Shown: in pieces, positions 3,347 through 64,000 of the stretch
Layout of the letters: each line of letters opens with the position of its first letter
Numbering within the stretch: position 1 is the first letter of the stretch
Assembly: GCA_041650995.1 (NCBI GenBank)
Contig: JBAZJZ010000002.1
Span: 13,344 to 77,343 of the forward strand
DNA length: 64,000 bases
Origin: Patescibacteria group bacterium
GTDB taxonomy: Bacteria; Patescibacteriota; Patescibacteriia; XYB2-FULL-38-15
Reading direction: 5' to 3'
Position numbers and translations under genes: made by a program
The notes under the pieces: model-generated
What the model saw: the letters and a program-made list of their open reading frames with translations, nothing else
Database searches by the model: none
What the model was told of the DNA's origin: nothing

Positions 3347-3442
3347 GGTTGCCCTTGACTTTTTAAAAATTCATGTTAATATAAAGCGTTGTCCTCAAGG
3401 GTGAGGCAATCTGTCTGGCATTTCGCCGACAGAAAACGGCCA

Positions 3443-3462
3443 GTCCCGCAGTACTGCGGGAC
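3443..3462 (+). promoter_or_regulatory. GC hairpin motif gtcccgcagtactgcgggac upstream of RBS of high-GC gene
   Basis: Perfect 8-bp inverted repeat; same motif recurs at 4811, 38297, 46232. Confidence 0.5.
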
Positions 3463-3487
3463 GAGCCAAAAGAAAGGAGGGCGAGCC

Positions 3488-4288
3488 ATGAAGGCGAGCC
3501 CGACGCTGACCGCCGATTTGCGGCGGGGAGACGAAACCCAGGTGCTCTTGAAACTGCAGCAGGATGGCGTGACGCCGGACGACTACGCCGCAATCGCCGC
3601 GAACGAGGCGATGCGGGCCGACATCGTGGCGGCCATCCAGAAGTACCGTCTTTTCACGCCGCCCGAGGAGCAGGTGAAGATCCTTCTTCGGCTCAACGGT
3701 CTCCTCTGGTGCGATCCGGCCATCACGGCCGAAGCGATCGCCGCTCTGGGGGCCCCGCCCACCGCGCCGGATTCGGGCAAGAACGTCCTTTACGCGGTCG
3801 TCCTGCTCTACGAGACGGGCGACGCGCTCACAACTTTCCAGCGGAACTGGGAGGCCTGCGTCGCGATTCACGGCGAGGAGCGAACCTGGAAGTGGGACGG
3901 CCTCGTCATGACGCCCAAGGGCGTGCGGCCCCGTGAGAAGGCCAAGCCGCGCCCCGCGGGTCTCCGCTGGGCCGTGGCCGAACTCGGTCGCGCCTACCAG
4001 GATATCGCGGTGCGTGACGCGCGCGTCGTTCAGGGTTCCACGGAACTCATGGGCATGGGGCAGGAACTGCCCTTGATCGCGGCTCTGCATCCGCGCTGGG
4101 CCACCTCCATGAACGGCAAGACGATTCCGTTCGTGGACGCGCTCGACCTGGAAGTTGCGCCGGACGGCGAGGGCGAGTTCGGCTACGCTCCGTGCCTCAA
4201 CTTCGACCGCGACTACGGCAAGGTTCACCTCAACGCCGACGACGTCGACAATTCGCTTCGGAACTTCGGTTCGGGTTCCCTTCAGTAG
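3488..4288 (+). CDS. High-GC hypothetical protein (266 aa), no recognisable domain, no signal peptide
   Basis: ORF in about 900 bp island of about 66% GC within about 38% GC flanks; RBS aaggagg 8 nt upstream of ATG 3488; own promoter (ttgact-17-taatat about 3352-3385) and own terminator at 4361-4393. Antisense ORF 3395..4354 judged GC artefact. Confidence 0.5.
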   Translation: MKASPTLTADLRRGDETQVLLKLQQDGVTPDDYAAIAANEAMRADIVAAIQKYRLFTPPEEQVKILLRLNGLLWCDPAITAEAIAALGAPPTAPDSGKNVLYAVVLLYETGDALTTFQRNWEACVAIHGEERTWKWDGLVMTPKGVRPREKAKPRPAGLRWAVAELGRAYQDIAVRDARVVQGSTELMGMGQELPLIAALHPRWATSMNGKTIPFVDALDLEVAPDGEGEFGYAPCLNFDRDYGKVHLNADDVDNSLRNFGSGSLQ

Positions 4289-4360
4289 TGTGTCTCTTGA
4301 CGCCTTGAGTCTTTGGTTCTTTGGAACTTGAGGCCTTGGCGTTTTGGACCACATTCCGCG

Positions 4361-4393
4361 AGGGCAGGTTTCTACGATCTGCCCTCTTTTTTT
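4361..4393 (+). terminator. Rho-independent terminator of high-GC gene
   Basis: gagggcaggtttctacgatctgccctc followed by ttttttt. Confidence 0.6.
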
Positions 4394-4865: not shown

Positions 4866-6461
<1,596 letters not shown>

Positions 6462-6668
6462 AGGGAGAAAATAATATTGTCCCCCTCACGGGACAAGATT
6501 GGTCGAAGTTTCATTTATTTGAAACTTTCAACAGTTATTAGGTGTGAAAAAAAGACAGAAAGCCGTACTTCTATTACTTCAAGTCGTCAAAAATAAAAAT
6601 GATTGGTAAACTCTTGCAAGAACCAATCATTTTTGTTATCATTTTAGAAACACTTTTGGTGGGTTTAT

Positions 6669-6745
6669 GGGCGCGTAGCTCAGTCGGTTAGAGCGCGTCA
6701 CTGATAATGACGAGGTCGGAGGTTCGATTCCTCCCGCGCCCACCA
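6669..6745 (+). tRNA. tRNA-Ile (GAU), CCA encoded
   Basis: Cloverleaf: gggcgcg/cgcgccc acceptor, anticodon loop ctgataa, T-loop ttcgatt. Confidence 0.9.
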
Positions 6746-6798
6746 AAGAATTACACCAAAGAATTAAGCAAGGAAATTTTTATATTATATTTTAGTAT

Positions 6799-6870
6799 GC
6801 CGGGGTAGCTCAGTGGTAGAGCGAAGGACTGAAAATCCTTGCGTCGTGAGTCCGATTCTCACCCCCGGCA
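6799..6870 (+). tRNA. tRNA-Phe (GAA)
   Basis: gccgggg/ccccggc acceptor, D-arm gctcagtggtagagc, anticodon loop ctgaaaa, T-arm gtgagtccgattctcac. Confidence 0.85.
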
Positions 6871-6886
6871 TTTCGCGTTTTAAAAC

Positions 6887-6957
6887 CGGGGTGTAGTACA
6901 ACGGTAGTATGCATGCTTTGGGAGCATGAGACCCGGGTTCAATTCCCGGCACCCCGA
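6887..6957 (+). tRNA. tRNA-Pro (UGG)
   Basis: cggggtg/caccccg acceptor, anticodon stem catgc/gcatg with loop tttggga, T-arm ccgggttcaattcccgg. Confidence 0.75.
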
Positions 6958-37326: not shown

Positions 37327-37385
37327 TTGACAAAGAGGTAAAATTATGCTATTATAAATTGTAAAATTAGAGGTGGAGATTAGGC
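37327..37385 (+). promoter_or_regulatory. Cassette promoter module copy A (TTGACA-17-TATTAT plus conserved downstream box)
   Basis: ttgacaaagaggtaaaattatgctattataaattgtaaaattagaggtggagattagg; about 90% identical to 38182-38240. Confidence 0.6.
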
Positions 37386-37472: not shown

Positions 37473-38075
37473 ATGAAGACAACGATGATCGCGGTGTTCG
37501 TTTCCCTGTTCGTGGTTGGGTGCTACGGGAGCTACCAGAACTACGGTACGGACGATGTGGCGCTCGAGACCTGCGAAGTGCGAGTGACGACGAACGCGAC
37601 GAACGCTTCCGTCACGGTGGACGGCGTCGCGGTCGGCAGCGTGGCGGAACTCGCGATGGGCGAGCACACCTTCGCCGCTACGGCTCCCGGTTATTTTCCG
37701 GCGAGCGTAGTGGTGGGGGTGGACGAGGCGTGCGCCCCGGTTGCGCTTCAGCTTTTCCCCGACCTGAATGGAGACTACGATCTTGTGCTGCATAACACGC
37801 TCTACGATCGTCTCCTGCTGCACCTCGACCAGGACGAGGAAGGAAATCTCGTCGGCTACGACTGGTACGCCGACGACCCGGGACACAGCTTCCAGGAATT
37901 CACCGGCACTGTTTCGTTCGATGGAGAGGTTTATCTCCTCTCGGACGATTCGGTTCGGCTGAGTCTTTCGGGGCAGTGGACTCCGCCGAGAATTGGCGGC
38001 GTCTCTCGGATCGTCGGCACCTGGACTTCCGCCGCGGGCGGCGACGGAGAGTGGCTCGCCGAGTCGCGACCGTAG
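37473..38075 (+). CDS. High-GC lipoprotein with PEGA-like domain (200 aa)
   Basis: Lipobox LFVVGC; VRVTTNATNASVTVDGVAVGSVAELAMGEHTFAATAPGYFPASVVV resembles PEGA domain; about 66% GC; antisense ORFs rejected. Confidence 0.6.
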   Translation: MKTTMIAVFVSLFVVGCYGSYQNYGTDDVALETCEVRVTTNATNASVTVDGVAVGSVAELAMGEHTFAATAPGYFPASVVVGVDEACAPVALQLFPDLNGDYDLVLHNTLYDRLLLHLDQDEEGNLVGYDWYADDPGHSFQEFTGTVSFDGEVYLLSDDSVRLSLSGQWTPPRIGGVSRIVGTWTSAAGGDGEWLAESRP

Positions 38076-38085
38076 CGTCGACTGC

Positions 38086-38240: not shown

Positions 38241-38296
38241 GAAAAAGCCTTACTGCTAAAACTTTTTCAGGTAATTTTCACTTTTTGTGAATAGCC

Positions 38297-38315
38297 GTCC
38301 CGCAAGACTGCGGGC
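38297..38315 (+). promoter_or_regulatory. GC hairpin motif gtcccgcaagactgcgggc upstream of RBS
   Basis: Member of the tcccgcag...ctgcggga family. Confidence 0.45.
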
Positions 38316-38331
38316 AAGGGAGGGGTTAACA

Positions 38332-38994
38332 ATGAAGGCGACGATCGCAATGTGCGCAATGAGCGTGGCGCTCACGGGCTGCCTTGGCATGGAGCTCGGC
38401 AATCCCGAGCCGTTTGAGTTCAGTCTTTCGACTGACTGGAGCAACCCGGAAGACGAGGTGCTCCGCGAGGCGGCTGAGATTTGGGAAAGGATGACCTGCC
38501 TGGACCTCTTCAATGACCAGGGCTACGAACCGCACGACGGGGGTTGGACTCGACCGAAGTTGAACGATCACAAGGATGTGGTCTATCCGTTTTCCCAGAT
38601 CGATACCACACCCGACATCGAAGACTACCTTGAGATGACAGGCGGGTTTGCCGGTTACTTCTGCGGCGACATCCTGATCATGCGGGGGGCGTATCTGCGC
38701 TCCGTGGACGATCAGATTTGTTTTTACAGCAGAGAGGGCGATCCTTCTCGTTGCTTGTCCGAAGAGGAGGCAAGGGAGGACTTTGTCTTCCAGTTCAATC
38801 TAGAGTTGGTCAAGAGAACCGCCATCCATGAATTCGGGCACGCGCTCGGTCTGGATCACAACGACTCCGCTCCTTCTGTGATGGGTACAGATGCATCTCC
38901 GCCCGAGTTCTATTCGGTAGAACCAACGGCGGCGGACATCGACAACCTCTGTCGACTGTACGACTGTCCGGCGGATTGTCCAACGCGACCATGA
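38332..38994 (+). CDS. High-GC lipoprotein zinc metalloprotease (metzincin/matrixin-like, 220 aa)
   Basis: Lipobox ALTGC; HEFGHALGLDHNDSAPSVM = HExxHxxGxxH plus Met-turn; start at MKAT (38332) after RBS gggagggg; ORF-track start 38287 (GTG) overlaps hairpin. Confidence 0.65.
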   Translation: MKATIAMCAMSVALTGCLGMELGNPEPFEFSLSTDWSNPEDEVLREAAEIWERMTCLDLFNDQGYEPHDGGWTRPKLNDHKDVVYPFSQIDTTPDIEDYLEMTGGFAGYFCGDILIMRGAYLRSVDDQICFYSREGDPSRCLSEEEAREDFVFQFNLELVKRTAIHEFGHALGLDHNDSAPSVMGTDASPPEFYSVEPTAADIDNLCRLYDCPADCPTRP

Positions 38995-39174: not shown

Positions 39175-40704
39175 ATGAAGGAGAAAATCGGAAAGTTCAT
39201 GGGATTCTTTTTGACCGTCTTCGTGGCGGCCACGATGTTCGCCTACGCCGCGTGCGGTGATGATGACGAGACGGCCAGGATCTGCGACCCCGGCTCGACG
39301 CAGGATTGCTCCTGCGGCGGCGGACGGACCGGTTACCAGATTTGCGATTACACCGGTCTCGCCTGGGGCACCTGCGAGTGTGACTGCGTCCCCAACTGCA
39401 CCGGCCGCGAATGTGGCTCGGATGGTTGCGGTGGCTCGTGCGGATCGTGTTCGGGTTCCGAGATATGTACTCCTGGCGGGGTCTGCGATACGACTGCGCC
39501 GAACTGTCCGGCAGATCGCGATTGCACCGGCCGTGAGTGCGGACCTGATCCGGTCTGCGGTACTTCCTGCGGCACGTGCTCGGGATCCGAGACGTGCAAT
39601 GCGTCGGGTAGATGCGATTGCACCCCCAACTGCTCCGGCCGTGAATGCGGCTCGGATGGCTGCGGAGGTTCTTGCGGTTCGTGCTCGGGATCCGAGACGT
39701 GCAATGCGTCGGGTACGTGTGTCCCAGGCACGGATCCGTGTTCATCGAGCTCCTCATGTTCGGCGTGTACGCCGCGAGGTGGATGCGGCTGGTGCCAGTC
39801 GACGGGAGTTTGCGTTTCGGGTATTAGTTCCGGACCAACAAGCGGAACCTGCGGTGACTGGCGTTGGACCCCAGGCGACTGTTGCACCCCCAACTGCTCC
39901 GGCCGTGAATGCGGCTCGGATGGCTGCGGAGGTTCTTGCGGTTCGTGCTCGGGATCCGAGACGTGCAATTCTTCAGGAAGGTGTGAATCCACGGTGTCCT
40001 GCGGAAACGGGCGTTGCGATTCGGGCGAAACGTGCGCTACGTGTCCGGCCGACTGCGGCGCTGGCGACGGATGTCTCCCTGGTTCTTCAGGGCCGTGTTC
40101 TAACTCGTGTGGAGCAGGCACGCGTATCTGCGACTCCAGTTGCCGGTGGGGAACTTGCGTTGTTTCTTCTGGCAGCGCCACGGTCCGGGTCACAGACGCA
40201 ACTTGGGTTTACCAGGCGTACCCGACAGTGAACAACTGCCACTCAGCTGTCCTATGGGTCGGCGTGAATCCAACGGACTTCCGGTATTACTACTCGTTCT
40301 TTGCACTCAATACGAGTGATCTTGACGCAATTCCGTCAGGCGCGGTCGCGACCATCACGAGCGCGAATTTACGGTTGCGCGTCCGGGATCGTCTAGGAGC
40401 AGCGCCAACGCTTGGTGTCTATCAAGTTACGTCTTCCTATTCGTGTGCGGCGACCACATACCGCAGCATGCCGTCGTTTTCTCTACCTGCATATGCTACG
40501 TGGCTTGCCAACCAGTCATCTGGGTCGTGGGTTTCGGTGCCTATTGTGGGATTCATTGAGTACGTGCGTTCAGCTGCTGTTGTCAATCCGACCTTGGCGT
40601 TGGGGATAGGCACCGGCGACATCGGGGTCGTCGAGTACATTGCTCCCGGCGGTGGCGGTACAGTTGATGACCCGACGATTACTGTGACATGGACGTGCCC
40701 ATAG
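39175..40704 (+). CDS. High-GC Cys-rich repeat lipoprotein (509 aa): 4x CxxNCxGRECGSDGCGGSCGSCSGSETC repeats, PSI-like CGWC module, C-terminal DNRLRE-like beta domain
   Basis: Lipobox AYAAC; four near-identical 30-aa Cys repeats; CSACTPRGGCGWCQSTGVC; C-terminal VRVTDATWVYQ...SFFALNTSDLDAIPSGAVATITSANLRLRV. Numerous overlapping ORFs on other frames rejected. Confidence 0.65.
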   Translation: MKEKIGKFMGFFLTVFVAATMFAYAACGDDDETARICDPGSTQDCSCGGGRTGYQICDYTGLAWGTCECDCVPNCTGRECGSDGCGGSCGSCSGSEICTPGGVCDTTAPNCPADRDCTGRECGPDPVCGTSCGTCSGSETCNASGRCDCTPNCSGRECGSDGCGGSCGSCSGSETCNASGTCVPGTDPCSSSSSCSACTPRGGCGWCQSTGVCVSGISSGPTSGTCGDWRWTPGDCCTPNCSGRECGSDGCGGSCGSCSGSETCNSSGRCESTVSCGNGRCDSGETCATCPADCGAGDGCLPGSSGPCSNSCGAGTRICDSSCRWGTCVVSSGSATVRVTDATWVYQAYPTVNNCHSAVLWVGVNPTDFRYYYSFFALNTSDLDAIPSGAVATITSANLRLRVRDRLGAAPTLGVYQVTSSYSCAATTYRSMPSFSLPAYATWLANQSSGSWVSVPIVGFIEYVRSAAVVNPTLALGIGTGDIGVVEYIAPGGGGTVDDPTITVTWTCP

Positions 40705-58724: not shown

Positions 58725-60044
58725 TTATTTATTGAACATTTTTTTTCGGCGCAGAAGTCTGTGATAGCCAATAGCAAAACGGTGGGCTTCGTCGCGGACT
58801 CGGAGCAAAATATCTTTGTGCAGTTCGGCGACGCGGACAAGCTCGGGGTTGTCTTTATTGGCAATCAGCCGGTCTTGCTTTCGGTCAAAACCTTTGGCAA
58901 TGCCAAGAACAGGAATTTTTAATTTATGTTCATCAAGAATTTCCCGGACGGCATTAATTTGTCCCCAGCCGCCGTCAACCAGAATTAAATTTGGCAAAGG
59001 CCAAATTTTTGAATTATGAAGTATGAAGTATGAATTATGGTTTTTGGGTTCCTTAATTTTTGATTCATAATTCTTGATTCTCCGTAATCTGCGCGACAAA
59101 ACTTCTCTTATCATCGCTACATCATTTGCTCCACTAACCGTCTTAATCTTGAACCTGCGGTATGCATTTTTGTTTGGCTTGCCATCTTCAAAAACAACCA
59201 TACTTCCCGTCGCCGCAGTACCGCTGATGTTGGAAATATCATAACCTTCAACTCGGCCGAAAACATTAATGCCAGATTCTCGGTTTTTAAATTTTGATTC
59301 TTCTTTGATGACGGCCACGTCCTGAATATGCTCCAAAGAAAAAACTTGATTGCGAAGTCGCGCAGCTATTTCAAAGCCTTCATGCCGGCTCGCGGCGGCC
59401 ATTTCTTTTTTTAAATTTTTAATGATTTTTTCTTTTTTTCCTTCAAAAAATAAAATCAAATTGCGGATAAGGCGGCGATAATCTTTAGATGAAATAAGAT
59501 CAGCGCAGGGTGCCGGGCATTGTTTTAAATGGTAATGCAAACAGGACAGTTTTGGCATAACGACGCAATCGCGGAAAGGGAAAATGCGGCGGCGTAAGAT
59601 ATCTAACGCGGCGCGAAGAGAAGAGGCGCTGGTGTACGGACCAAAAAGTTTAGAGATTTGTTTTTTTTCTTTGGGCGTCATTCTCTCCAATTCCAAACCG
59701 CGCAATAAAAATATTCTCGGAAATTTTTCTTTGGTAAAAGCTACGTATAAAAACGATCTGTCGTCTTTTTCCTTTACATTATATTTTGGCAAATATTTTT
59801 TAATAAGATTGGCTTCCAAAATCAATGCTTCAATTACAGTGGGAGTTTTTTTATAATCAATATCCGCTATTTCTTGAACCAATTTTTCAATTCTAACATC
59901 GTGCGGCCGATCAAAATAACTTTTGACGCGATCGCGGAGAGAAGTGGCCTTGCCGACATAAATAATTTTCCCCGCGGCATTTTTCATTAAATACGCGCCT
60001 GGGGTTTTGGGGAATTTTTTTATTTTGTTTTTTAATTCTGACAT
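58725..60044 (-). CDS. uvrC: Excinuclease ABC subunit C (UvrC), start at MSELKNKIKK
   Basis: GIY-YIG motif PKTPGAYLMKNAAGKIIYVGKATSLRDRV; ORF-track N-terminal 123 aa (to 60413) rejected as read-through across the high-GC insert. Confidence 0.8.
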   Translation of the reverse strand: MSELKNKIKKFPKTPGAYLMKNAAGKIIYVGKATSLRDRVKSYFDRPHDVRIEKLVQEIADIDYKKTPTVIEALILEANLIKKYLPKYNVKEKDDRSFLYVAFTKEKFPRIFLLRGLELERMTPKEKKQISKLFGPYTSASSLRAALDILRRRIFPFRDCVVMPKLSCLHYHLKQCPAPCADLISSKDYRRLIRNLILFFEGKKEKIIKNLKKEMAAASRHEGFEIAARLRNQVFSLEHIQDVAVIKEESKFKNRESGINVFGRVEGYDISNISGTAATGSMVVFEDGKPNKNAYRRFKIKTVSGANDVAMIREVLSRRLRRIKNYESKIKEPKNHNSYFILHNSKIWPLPNLILVDGGWGQINAVREILDEHKLKIPVLGIAKGFDRKQDRLIANKDNPELVRVAELHKDILLRVRDEAHRFAIGYHRLLRRKKMFNK

Positions 60045-60095
60045 ATTGACATTTTTATTTTTTTGTTTCAAGATTGATTTTAGAGGAGGAGACAA

Positions 60096-60365
60096 ATGAA
60101 AGTTGTATACATAAAGGAGAGAAAGCCGTGGGGGTATGTTCTTTCCCTCGTCGAGGTTGGGAGAGGTATTTCCGTTTCTACTGCCCAGGATACATTGGTG
60201 ATTGTCGGAGACGAGACGAAAGAAGCTCGCCTGCTGAAGTCGGCGATCGACCAGTTTCAGAGAATCGCGCCGGTCGCCGGTATCACTAGGGAGTTGAAGG
60301 ACCAGTGCGAAAGGTTCGGCATTGTGATCAGCTCGGGATGGAAGGTGTATCACTTTCCTTCGTAG
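60096..60365 (+). CDS. Small high-GC hypothetical protein (89 aa)
   Basis: RBS gaggaggag 6 nt before ATG; about 55% GC island; own terminator 60406-60432; lies between uvrC and uvrA on opposite strand. Confidence 0.4.
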   Translation: MKVVYIKERKPWGYVLSLVEVGRGISVSTAQDTLVIVGDETKEARLLKSAIDQFQRIAPVAGITRELKDQCERFGIVISSGWKVYHFPS

Positions 60366-60405
60366 CGATCCTGTCGTAGAATGTTCGTAGAACGTGTCCG
60401 CGCAC

Positions 60406-60432
60406 AAGACCACACTAGTGTGGTCTTTTTTT
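60406..60432 (+). terminator. Rho-independent terminator of small high-GC gene
   Basis: aagaccacactagtgtggtc plus ttttttt. Confidence 0.6.
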
Positions 60433-63019
60433 ATTTCAAAACTTTTTTCAAATATTGTCCGGTGTATGACTTTGGATTTTTTGCCAATTCTTCCGGCGTG
60501 CCGGATGCGATCAATTGTCCGCCCGCGTCTCCCCCATCTGGTCCAAGATCAATAATCCAGTCAGCTGTTTTAATAAAATCTAAATTATGTTCAATGACAA
60601 TCACGGTATTTCCCAAACTAACCAAGCGATGTAGAACTTCCAATAATTTTTCCACATCAGCGTAGTGTAAACCGACAGTCGGCTCATCCAGAATATAAAT
60701 CGTCCGGCCGGTGGAACGGCGAGCTAATTCCGCGCCAAGTTTTATTCTTTGCGCTTCGCCGCCTGATAAAGTCGTTGCGGCTTGTCCGAGGGTCAGATAT
60801 TGTAAGCCAACTTCGCGTAAGATTTTCAGACGATCATAAACCGGAGGAATATTTCGAAAAAATCCTTCCGCTTCTTCTATGGTCATTTGCAAGATGTCAT
60901 GAATATTTTTTTCTTTATATTTTATGGCTAATGTTTCCCGGTCAAAACGAGTTCCTTTGCAAACTGGGCAAGTGACATAAACCGCCGGCAGGAAATGCAT
61001 TTCAATTTTAATCAATCCGGCGCCTTCGCAATTTTCGCAACGTCCCCCCGGCACGTTAAAACTGAATCGCCCTGGCTGGTAGCCACGGGCGCGAGATTCT
61101 GGCATGGCGGCAAAAAGTTCGCGAATGTGCGTCCATGCACCAGTATAAGTTACTGGGTTAGAACGCGGCGTGCGGCCAATAGGAGATTGATCAATCACGA
61201 TAACTTTATCCAAATAATCCAATCCTTCAATTCGAGCGTGTTTTCCAATCTGCCAGTTGGTGTGATTAAGTTTATTGGAAAGTCCTTTGTAAAGAATGTC
61301 ATTTACCAAAGTGCTTTTACCCGAGCCGGAAACGCCGGTGACACAGACAAAACGCTTGAGCGGGATTCTGACATCAATATTTTTTAAATTATTTTCCGTG
61401 GCGCCGACAATTTTTATCTGCCCTGAAGAAAAATATTTATTTTTTTCATCAACATGGCGGCGTTTCTCCGGAATTTTAATAACTTTATCTCCGCGTAAAT
61501 ACGCCGCGGTCAAAGATTTTTTATCTTGCAAGACGTCGGGCATGGGACCGGCCGCGACAATTTCTCCGCCGTGCACGCCGGCGCCGGGCCCGAGATCAAC
61601 CAAATAATCAGCCATCCAAATTGTTTCCGGATCGTGTTCCACGACAATAACCGTATTGCCGATATCTCGTAAGTTCGCGAGCGTCGCCAATAATTTTTCA
61701 TTATCTTTTGGGTGTAAACCAATTGTTGGTTCATCCAAAATATAAAGCGCGCCAACTAAGCGTGAACCAACTTGCGAGGCAAGTCGGATACGCTGGGCTT
61801 CACCGCCGGAAAGTGTGCCGGCCGTGCGGCCAAGCGTTAAATATCCCAAACCAACATTTAACATAAATTCCAGCCGGTTCGTAATTTCTTTTAAAACGGT
61901 TTCCGCGATTTCAAGTTCAGTGTCATTTAATTTTTGTACAAATAATTTTGTTTTTTCTTTACCGGTTAGAGCAGTAAAAAAACTACGCGCCTCTTCAATA
62001 GACATTGTTGTCACTTCCACAATATTTTTTTTGCCAACAAAAACATGCAAACTTTCTTTTCTAAGCCTGTCTCCGCCGCAATCGGGGCAAGGTTTTTCAG
62101 AAAACAAAGATTCAGTGCCAAGGCCGTGGCAAATGGGGCAAGCGCCATAAGGGCTATTAAACGAGAAGAGACGAGGTTCAATTTCCGGAAAAGAAAAACC
62201 ATCGTCCGGGCAAGAATACTTTGATGACATTACTACTTCTTCACCATTATCCAAAATTACCGTCGCGACGCCTTCGCCGTGTTTTAAAGCTGTTTCCATA
62301 GCTTCGGCCAAGCGCGCGCGTAGGCCTTTATTATTTTCTAATGGCCAACCGAGAGTAATTTTATCCACGAGCAAATCAATATTATGTTGTTTGTATCGGG
62401 CAAGGACGATTTTGTTTCTAAGTTCTCTAAATTTTCCGTTGACGCGGACTTCGGAAAATCCGTCGTTGTATAAGTTATATAGTAATTGGTAATATTCACC
62501 CTTTCTTCCACGGACGACTGGCGCGAGAATGGCAATGCAATCACTTGATTTTGCCGCAGAAGGTTTATTTTCCCTGTGAATTTCTGAAGTTTTTTTCAAA
62601 ATCAAATCAACCATTTCTTCAACGGTCATTTTTTTAATTTCTTTCCCGCAGACCGGACAATATGGTTTGCCGACGCGGGCAAAGAGCACGCGAAGATAAT
62701 CGTAAATTTCCGTGATGGTGGCAACCGTGGAACGGGGATTAGCGCTATGGGCTTTTTGGTCAATGGAAATAGCCGGGGATAATCCTTCAATTTCATCAAC
62801 ATCGGGTTTATCCATTTGTCCTAAAAATTGTCGAGCGTAAGCCGAGAGGGACTCAACATAACGGCGTTGGCCTTCGGCAAAAATGGTATCAAAAGCCAGA
62901 CTAGATTTTCCCGAACCAGAAAGTCCGGTAAAAACCGTTAATTTATTTCTTGGGATTTCCAGAGAAACATTTTTTAAATTATGTTCCCTAGCTCCTTTTA
63001 TAATTATTTTATCTTGCAT
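60431..63019 (-). CDS. uvrA: Excinuclease ABC subunit A (UvrA)
   Basis: Two ABC modules ([14 protein letters not shown]; [15 protein letters not shown]), zinc-finger Cys pairs, LSGGEAQRI signatures. Confidence 0.95.
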
Positions 63020-63126
63020 ATATCGTTGACATTTTTTAATTTATTTGGAATAATTTTATTGTACGGTTTTGGTTTGCTGTTTCGGCGAACCACCGTCCGA
63101 GGAAAGAAGGAGGTGGAAAGACGGAG

Positions 63127-63201
63127 ATGGGCAAGGGGTTCTCGCGGTTCGGCTCGCAGATGGCGGGCGAGGTGACGGCGCAGGTCAAGAAGACGGCGTG
63201 A
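63127..63201 (+). CDS. Possible 24-aa high-GC peptide MGKGFSRFGSQMAGEVTAQVKKTA
   Basis: RBS gaaggaggtgg 8 nt upstream; within about 280-bp island of about 62% GC between uvrA and uvrB; followed by hairpin plus T run (about 63340-63380). Confidence 0.25.
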   Translation: MGKGFSRFGSQMAGEVTAQVKKTA

Positions 63202-63326
63202 CGCGGTGATCCCGCTGGAGGTGAACGTCGGGGTGCCCCTGACACGGGACGGAGATCGTCGGTTTAGCGGCAAAGCGTCGCTACAGAAATGTGAACCGGC
63301 GAAAATTCCGGCAGCCCTTAAGAGAA

Positions 63327-64000
<674 letters not shown>

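Follow-up and report, generated by a model that had tools for sequence, protein, structure and literature searches.

The question of what a small gene, read on the opposite strand, is doing between uvrC and uvrA is raised by a stretch of 64,000 nucleotides (nt) from a Patescibacteria group bacterium (GenBank assembly GCA_041650995.1, contig JBAZJZ010000002.1, positions 13,344 to 77,343 of the forward strand). This whole stretch is called the window in what follows, and all coordinates refer to it. The gene in question occupies positions 60096-60365 of the plus strand (ATG at 60096, TAG at 60363-60365), encodes a protein of 89 amino acids (aa) and is annotated at NCBI as hypothetical protein WC445_03450, while the two genes of nucleotide excision repair (NER) on either side of it are read from the minus strand. 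The answer developed here is that it belongs to a genuine cassette in a conserved slot, that its product is probably a polymorphic binding protein, and that it may be coupled to uvrC by antisense transcription; taken as a whole, this picture seems to us fairly probable, and its several parts differ in how firmly they can be stated.

A genuine gene with its own expression signals

The small gene is preceded by a promoter-like block (60046-60074, plus strand) that consists of TTGACA (60046-60051), a T-rich spacer of 17 nt and CAAGAT (60069-60074), and by a Shine-Dalgarno (SD) sequence, gaggaggag (60083-60091), which lies 4 nt 5' of the ATG. It is followed by a predicted intrinsic terminator (60406-60432), a AAGACCACACT/AGTGTGGTCTT hairpin with a perfect 11+11 stem (60406-60427, 100% complementary) and then a run TTTTT that overlaps the uvrA stop codon at 60431-60433. 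Read on the minus strand, the same hairpin is followed by UUGUGCGCGG and has no U-run. The 29-mer of the promoter block is unique within the window.

On one side lies uvrC (58725-60044, minus strand), which is divergent from the small gene, encodes 439 aa from its true start at 60044 (MSELKNK...) and has Pfam matches to GIY-YIG, UVR and UvrC_RNaseH; on the other lies uvrA (60431-63019, minus strand; a UvrA_inter Pfam match is found in the orthologous genes), which is convergent with it. The ATG of the small gene is 51 nt from the start of uvrC, with the directions of transcription opposed, and the promoter block begins only 2 nt past the uvrC start codon in the window, and one or two bases past it in most of the related cassettes described below. 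Read on the minus strand, this promoter becomes the 5' leader of uvrC, and uvrC has no SD sequence. As a side observation, the UvrC proteins of this clade and of Uhrbacteria-like outgroups are short (about 400-445 aa), comprising GIY-YIG, UVR and RNase H-like domains and no C-terminal (HhH)2.

That the small open reading frame (ORF) is a genuine protein-coding gene of an uncharacterised family is shown by its homologues, by purifying selection and by a confident predicted fold (see the next section). A word-indexed search returned no protein but this one, which is entered there as hypothetical and comes from a Patescibacteria metagenome-assembled genome, but phmmer, run against 1.84 billion representatives, found four small homologues (E 2e-18 to 9e-6, 35-56% identity), and with profile searches the family grew to about 25 clusters, formed at 90% identity, of 84-106 aa, none of them fused to anything else and none annotated. 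Two further proteins returned by phmmer, P0005 and P0007 (528 and 1231 aa, with 7-9 repeated stretches of low complexity), are not regarded as homologues, because their E-values are inflated by summing over repeats. In the family alignment every insertion or deletion preserves the reading frame, and the ratio of nonsynonymous to synonymous substitution (dN/dS) is 0.167 in the least saturated pair and 0.09-0.48 across pairs. A structured non-coding RNA was considered and rejected: no Rfam match falls in the region of the small gene, and its folding z-scores relative to shuffled sequences are unremarkable (-0.77 for the mRNA, -1.75 for the antisense strand). Searches of the family libraries Pfam, NCBIfam, PHROGs and PADLOC and of PDB sequences gave nothing above noise for the protein, the best PDB profile match being the longin region of SMCR8 at a non-significant E of 0.054, and nothing on the gene was found in the literature.

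One consequence of the arrangement is of practical importance for annotation, since the open antisense frame can lead gene callers to a false extension of uvrC by 123 codons. The list of ORFs compiled for the window does indeed start uvrC at a GTG at 60413 and so makes its product 562 aa long in place of 439. The open frame is best understood as a by-product of the high guanine plus cytosine (GC) content at third codon positions (GC3) of the small gene, which removes the codons TTA, CTA and TCA that would give antisense stops. It is not conserved, ending 39-150 nt upstream of uvrC in the related loci L015-L018, and the called UvrC proteins of relatives have 396-442 aa; a long UvrC isoform was accordingly rejected. 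A preliminary description of this DNA, made from its letters alone, had recognised this over-extension, and its account of an 89-aa plus-strand ORF with a gaggaggag ribosome-binding site and a clean terminator hairpin, filling the gap between uvrC and uvrA on the opposite strand, agrees with the sequence and the coordinates. It had also made the reality of the ORF depend on plus-strand transcription and conserved homologues, and the latter exist, in about 25 clusters.

Predicted fold and likely mode of action

When AlphaFold was supplied with an alignment of 11 sequences, five models converged with pLDDT values of 76-88 (87.9 for the best, with pTM 0.76), and the predicted order of secondary structure elements is beta-beta-beta(-beta)-alpha-beta-alpha-beta. 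Foldseek gave weak matches only, with best E-values of 4e-3 against the PDB and 2e-2 against BFVD and TM-scores of 0.45-0.58, but nearly all the proteins in these lists are RNase H-like: they include RuvC, RNase H, the RNase H/connection domain of HIV reverse transcriptase and a terminase nuclease domain, and in addition Hsp70, glucokinase and the C-terminal half of UvrC (2nrx and 2nrt, E 0.06). Among 25 aligned members of the family, G62 alone is invariant and L47 and W82 are conserved in more than 90%, while no acidic or histidine column is conserved and no catalytic constellation can be recognised. The window protein has a predicted isoelectric point (pI) of 9.2, and 20 of the 25 members lie between 8.8 and 9.7; all are predicted to be soluble and cytoplasmic, without any long hydrophobic segment.

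Since an RNase H-like module without a conserved catalytic residue would be expected to bind rather than to cut, we infer from the predicted model that the small protein may be a compact, non-catalytic RNase H-like module that binds a nucleic acid or protein partner. Our best guess is a non-catalytic binding protein, carried in a polymorphic cassette of the kind described below. Resemblances to HicB and to HhH modules, which had been noticed by eye, were dropped, as no tool supports either of them.

Occurrence of the family and history of the slot

In all family members for which the genomic context was read (more than 20 loci), the order is uvrC (minus), small gene (plus), uvrA (minus), and the gene order shared around the family is glycosyltransferase, a 531-aa protein, PGI, uvrC, small gene, uvrA, uvrB. 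In one lineage (L005/L095) two complete cassettes stand in tandem in the slot. All members of the family come from a single Falkowbacteria-like clade within Patescibacteria, and some of the carriers are named Candidatus Falkowbacteria. A survey of the slot, made with UvrC as query and one genome per species, returned 80 loci, and among these the matches to a hidden Markov model (HMM) of the family were confined to the seven closest relatives (67-82% UvrC identity by tblastn), one of which, L020, has a spacer of about 75 nt and no small gene. None of the Uhrbacteria-like outgroups in the survey carries it. In outgroups it is common for uvrA to be followed by uvrC on the same strand, with a variable junction that is reduced at several loci to abutting genes.

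The contents of this junction elsewhere are of some interest in their own right. At L044, L050, L063, L071, L072, L078, L089 and L090 the slot holds an unrelated lipoprotein gene of 160-200 aa on the opposite strand, with a cupredoxin-like C-terminus (...GFHTFVIDE...YCDIGSHRAxGMEGTLIVK), and in other outgroups NUDIX, PaaX-like or M23 genes are found in it on the same strand. The uvrA-uvrC junction is thus a recurrent insertion slot, of which the small gene is an old, clade-restricted occupant and not a recent insert. No relative of the small protein was found in viral contigs, no homologue that might have served as donor was found outside the clade by phmmer or profile searches, and around the cassette no mobility genes, nearby tRNA genes or convincing flanking direct repeats were found. 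The edges of the cassette do bear an imperfect direct repeat of 23 nt (78% identical, T-rich; 60058-60080 and 60426-60448), which reads TTTTTTTGTTTCAAGAT... on the promoter side and TTTTTTTATTTCAAAAC... on the side of the terminator and uvrA stop. It may be left over from the insertion event itself or be due to chance in low-complexity sequence; it was the only repeat found, and its complexity is too low for an interpretation.

The preliminary description had spoken of an insert, and had raised the matter of whether homologues occur beside uvr genes or in other islands. The term is apt on the deep timescale set by the outgroups, but a recent or island-like insert it is not, given that the same slot is occupied at more than 20 loci of one clade; as for the contexts, every one that was read is the uvrC-uvrA slot.

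A constant frame around a variable coding part

What is constant in the cassette is its frame. The promoter, in the form TTGAC[AT]-17-[CT]AAGAT (AAGCT in one case), is kept in 17 of 17 distinct cassettes, even where the proteins are less than 25% identical, and the same complete conservation is seen for a GGAGG-type SD sequence (GGAGA or GGGAGG in a few) and for a hairpin terminator with a T-run. The coding part is another matter. The small proteins fall into at least four types, which are only about 15-36% identical to one another, and between genomes their identity ranges from 15 to 84%, as against 66-89% for UvrC (78-89% if L021 is set aside). When the window is compared with L015 and with L010 by sliding window, nucleotide identity is 75-97% in the flanks and 25-55% in the cassette, and the drop has sharp edges, one at the promoter and the other exactly at the uvrA stop.

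The types are, moreover, distributed without regard to the relatedness of their neighbours. UvrC proteins are equally alike whether their genomes carry one type or different types, at 81.8% identity in both cases (P = 0.41), the nearest UvrC neighbour carries another type in 10 of 16 genomes, and L010 and L015, whose UvrC proteins are 92% identical, have small proteins that share only 26%. Within types selection is purifying, with dN/dS about 0.15; between types synonymous sites are saturated. Since the divergence between types lies far above what the flanks would predict, while selection within types is purifying and the types are incongruent with UvrC, recombinational exchange or diversifying selection is suggested; that is to say, either old alleles appear to have been swapped by recombination at the conserved flanks, or there appear to have been episodes of diversifying selection. 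That the protein diverges from close relatives far more than its neighbouring genes do suggests a rapidly changing interaction, not a housekeeping one. In one pair, L006 and L013, synonymous divergence (dS) is 0.47 for the small gene and 1.25 for uvrC, although the lower value may be a simple effect of codon bias.

Two further elements were noticed at the borders of related cassettes. In L015 the uvrC start and the promoter of the cassette, which otherwise abut, are parted by an extra segment of about 130 nt that is bounded by a long inverted repeat (ccccgttagaagtc ... gacttctaacgggg) and has the look of a small palindromic (MITE-like) insertion. In L003, L005, L006, L013, L014, L017 and L019 a conserved element of about 60 nt, aagcgagcgagatcc...hairpin...gagcgcagataac, occupies the interval from the cassette terminator to the uvrA stop. 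It is absent in the window, and it could serve uvrA as a terminator on the minus strand or represent a small repeat.

Base composition of the small gene

The distinct composition of the region had been remarked upon in the preliminary description, where the ORF was put at about 55% GC and counted as the fourth locus showing a pattern of GC-rich plus-strand inserts. The distinctness is real and the count is broadly right, as further GC3-rich plus-strand cassettes are present in the window (see below), but the percentage is slightly overstated: the ORF has 51.5% GC, with windows of 150-200 nt peaking at 54-57%, and the true anomaly lies in the third codon position. GC3 of the small gene is 0.64, compared with 0.29-0.46 in every ordinary gene of the window, and the order GC3 > GC1 > GC2 is found only in the plus-strand frame of the gene. 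In all orthologues measured GC3 is likewise high (0.49-0.69, against 0.35-0.44 in their uvrC and uvrA genes).

A model for expression of the locus

How such a cassette might work can be sketched from the layout of the sequence. The small gene would be transcribed from the conserved TTGACA-17-YAAGAT promoter, and its transcripts would end at the hairpin, which would stop plus-strand transcripts only; transcription would thus presumably run antisense to the uvr genes. A scan of the minus strand from 60045 to 60430 turned up no sigma-70-like site, and this, together with the lack of an SD sequence before uvrC and of a U-tail after the hairpin in that direction, makes it probable that uvrC is reached by read-through from uvrA, antisense across the cassette. 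Should that be so, uvrA and uvrC might constitute a noncontiguous operon, and the small gene, when transcribed, would oppose expression of uvrC. The protein itself would act by binding and not by catalysis, and its surface would change fast because that of its partner does.

Alternative explanations

Two of the alternatives accept the gene but assign it a more definite role. It might be an NER accessory protein, or a degenerate miniature of the RNase H-like endonuclease domain of UvrC (or an HhH-like module), which would aid the short UvrC by binding damaged DNA or UvrC/UvrA. The gene always adjoins uvrC in divergent orientation, UvrC here is without an HhH domain, and the family is basic; furthermore, when the family HMM was applied to the 9022 ORFs of the fetched loci, the sole matches outside the family were to UvrC, always in the same segment (E 0.01-0.15), with residues 31-66 of the small protein aligned to UvrC 'LILVDGGxGQ...IPVLGIAK'. 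This segment we take to be the beta4-alpha2-beta5 part of the nuclease domain. Comparison with a UvrC alignment by hhalign picked out the same segment at P = 0.01 (in controls the reversed sequence scored 12.6 against 22.5 for the real one, and one of 40 column shuffles reached the observed score), and the C-terminal half of UvrC (2nrx, 2nrt) is among the Foldseek matches at E 0.06. However, the hhalign probability for this match is 4% over 34 residues, RuvC fits the protein better than UvrC does, and the high GC3 speaks against local duplication of an AT-rich host gene; outgroups with an equally short UvrC have no small protein, the slot elsewhere holds unrelated genes, and a housekeeping partner of the highly conserved UvrC would not be expected to range from 15% to 84% identity. 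The ties to NER or to descent from UvrC are therefore weak leads, and we regard this explanation as unlikely. Somewhat less so, though still doubtful, is a conflict- or immunity-type protein unrelated to NER (an orphan antitoxin like the N-terminal domain of HicB, or an anti-phage or host-aimed factor), whose polymorphism an arms race would maintain and which would simply have settled in a permissive slot. This would sit well with a hypervariable coding region between conserved flanks, with types shuffled among close relatives, with the tandem paralogue in one lineage, with strong and conserved expression signals, with a slot that is variable across Patescibacteria and with the small size of the protein and its lack of a catalytic motif; it sits less well with the absence of any match in PADLOC, PHROGs or Pfam, of a homologue in viral contigs, of a partner toxin gene in the slot and of HicB among the 50 best Foldseek matches, and with purifying selection within types.

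The remaining two alternatives concern origin and reality. A recently acquired foreign insert (genomic islet) peculiar to this genome would account for the atypical GC3 (0.64 against about 0.38), for the fact that uvrA and uvrC abut in L020 and several outgroups, and for the other GC-rich cassettes in the window, but it is very improbable when the same slot is occupied in all sampled genomes of the clade except L020, with flanks diverged to a uvrC dS above 1, and when no donor homologue was found outside the clade and the cassette is accompanied neither by mobility or tRNA genes nor by direct repeats that convince; an insertion that took place long ago, at the root of the clade, would still agree with the observations. 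It is scarcely credible, finally, that there is no gene at all, the ORF being due to chance in a GC-rich spacer, or the shadow of a UvrC with an extended N-terminus, or else a non-coding RNA. The antisense frame is indeed open and continuous with uvrC, and in an AT-rich genome a GC-rich stretch often turns out to be a structured RNA, such as lies nearby at 63060-63385; yet the uvrC extension is not conserved (L015-L018, and UvrC of 396-442 aa in relatives), dN/dS is below 1, the codon-position pattern appears in the plus-strand frame only, the AlphaFold model is confident, and neither the fold z-scores of sense and antisense strands nor Rfam point to an RNA.

There are also clear caveats for the picture preferred here, of a genuine cassette with a polymorphic binding protein and antisense coupling to uvrC. 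Several points weigh against it. From the fixed position little can be concluded about a role in NER, because the genomes that carry the gene are all closely related and have the entire gene order in common, and unrelated genes take the same place in outgroups. Almost every pair of genomes has UvrC proteins about 80% identical, so that the clade has a star-like appearance, and the incongruence between types and UvrC could come in part from such a radiation, or from recombination within uvrC itself. For the within-type pair L006/L019 the sliding window shows a cassette no different from its flanks, and recent transfer of the cassette was rejected on this account; high GC3, for its part, persists in the orthologues although uvrC dS exceeds 1. 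The only signal as to family is structure-based and carries no readable function, and the -10 element CAAGAT agrees with the consensus at 3 of 6 positions, which is why the promoter block is not called by a consensus scanner.

It is of course possible to go further, and to see the uvrC-uvrA slot as a polymorphic plug-in site in which an invariant promoter/SD/terminator frame receives interchangeable GC3-rich alleles, each a dead miniature RNase H-like protein derived perhaps from the nuclease domain of UvrC, that would gate NER both by binding DNA or UvrC and by antisense transcription, with alleles exchanged under diversifying selection and with the other GC-rich cassettes of the window belonging to the same modular system. 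So extended a scheme we consider quite improbable as a whole.

Other features of the window

Four other cassette genes of similar composition lie on the plus strand of the window, each with an AT-rich TTGAC promoter and with GC3 of 0.63-0.82 compared with about 0.38 for host genes. They encode an unknown protein of 266 aa (3488-4288), a PEGA-domain lipoprotein-like protein (37473-38075), a matrixin-like metalloprotease with the motif HEFGHALGLDH (38287-38994) and a Cys-rich repeat protein (39175-40704). A terminator of 68 nt is used three times (at 38083, 38992 and 40787, 88-97% identical) and a promoter/leader of 61 nt twice (at 37327 and 38182, 89% identical), and because of this reuse it seems that GC-rich coding inserts are carried in modular AT-rich expression frames. 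A block of 1 kb that reaches 73% GC (3361-4391) stands directly upstream of the 16S rRNA gene, which is followed by tRNA-Ile, tRNA-Phe and tRNA-Pro (4870-6957 in all); as the remaining 57 kb of the window contain no 23S or 5S gene, the rRNA genes are unlinked.

A second antisense unit of the uvr cluster is found in the spacer between uvrA and uvrB (63026-63385, plus strand), where a GC-rich RNA of about 320 nt is predicted with its own promoter and terminator and a fold z-score of -3.18. The promoter (63026-63054), TTGACA-17-(TG)AATAAT, matches at 11 of 12 positions, and the terminator (63341-63376) has 16 base pairs. The 5' and 3' domains are kept in eight further relatives (L001, L003, L006, L010 and L015-L018), with compensatory changes in 9 of the 79 predicted pairs, while in L007, where uvrA and uvrB abut, the unit is absent. 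It contains a conserved SD sequence and ATG, partly paired with an upstream CCACC and followed by a variable ORF of 16-24 codons. No Rfam family matches it even at E <= 10, and it looks like an unclassified structured or dual-function RNA. The last 17 or so codons of uvrB (63327-63376) are the reverse complement of its plus-strand terminator hairpin, so that uvrB either bears a short tail that is not conserved or has been annotated too far.

Significance

The genomes of Patescibacteria are tiny, and the many orphan small genes that they contain are usually ignored; the gene described here is a tractable test case. It presents a puzzle of genome evolution, being strongly signalled for expression and keeping a fixed place within the one DNA-repair cluster that is complete, with alleles that are far older, or evolve far faster, than the surrounding genome, and with a foreign-looking codon composition that has been kept despite long residence in a streamlined episymbiont. 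If the protein or the antisense transcription should prove to modulate UvrC, bacterial nucleotide excision repair would turn out to be regulated in a novel manner, while if the gene should prove to be of the conflict type it would give access to the defence and interaction biology of the phylum, most of which is unknown.

Relation to known systems

Of known folds, the closest comparison is with the RNase H-like nucleases. As predicted, the order of strands and helices in the small protein would be that of RuvC and of the C-terminal endonuclease domain of UvrC (2nrt/2nrx), and in Foldseek searches of two independent libraries (PDB and BFVD) by far the most matches are to RNase H-like folds. However, it is about half the size of these enzymes, it is without the conserved Asp, Glu or His residues of metal-ion catalysis, and it has no Pfam or PDB sequence match, the structural scores being below significance (best E 4e-3, TM at most 0.58). 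Of the features that define the superfamily, then, neither the catalytic DEDD, DDE or DDH residues nor a significant profile match (in Pfam, NCBIfam, PDB profiles or hhalign) was found. A further likeness is to the N-terminal domain of the HicB antitoxin, which we take to be a partial RNase H fold, that is, a small beta-beta-beta-alpha module that serves for binding and not catalysis and evolves fast. In contrast to HicB, the small protein has neither a partner gene for HicA nor a DNA-binding tail of the ribbon-helix-helix (RHH) or helix-turn-helix (HTH) kind; HicB gave no Pfam match to it at E <= 1 to 10 and is not among its 50 best Foldseek matches.

As regards the arrangement of genes, the nearest parallels are the noncontiguous operons and excludons, in which an embedded gene on the opposite strand and the operon around it interfere mutually (PMC11034616, PMC7154746), although in those described the embedded gene is not a hypervariable allele as it is here (PMC11034616, PMC7154746). 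The order uvrB (minus), uvrA (minus), small gene (plus), uvrC (minus) is that of a noncontiguous operon, and as uvrC has no evident promoter or SD sequence and the intervening terminator is directional, the layout points to probable co-transcription of uvrA and uvrC.

As regards variability, the comparison is with polymorphic loci between conserved core genes, such as pherotype, immunity and specificity cassettes, which are exchanged by homologous recombination. Sharp cassette edges, discrete types that are independent of the phylogeny of the flanks and conserved expression signals are common to these loci and to the cassette described here, which differs from them in being without a partner gene, a secretion signal or a known specificity function. 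Set beside all these systems, the product of the uvrC-uvrA slot, whose family is in no curated library, is an orphan small protein in an antisense-embedded polymorphic cassette.

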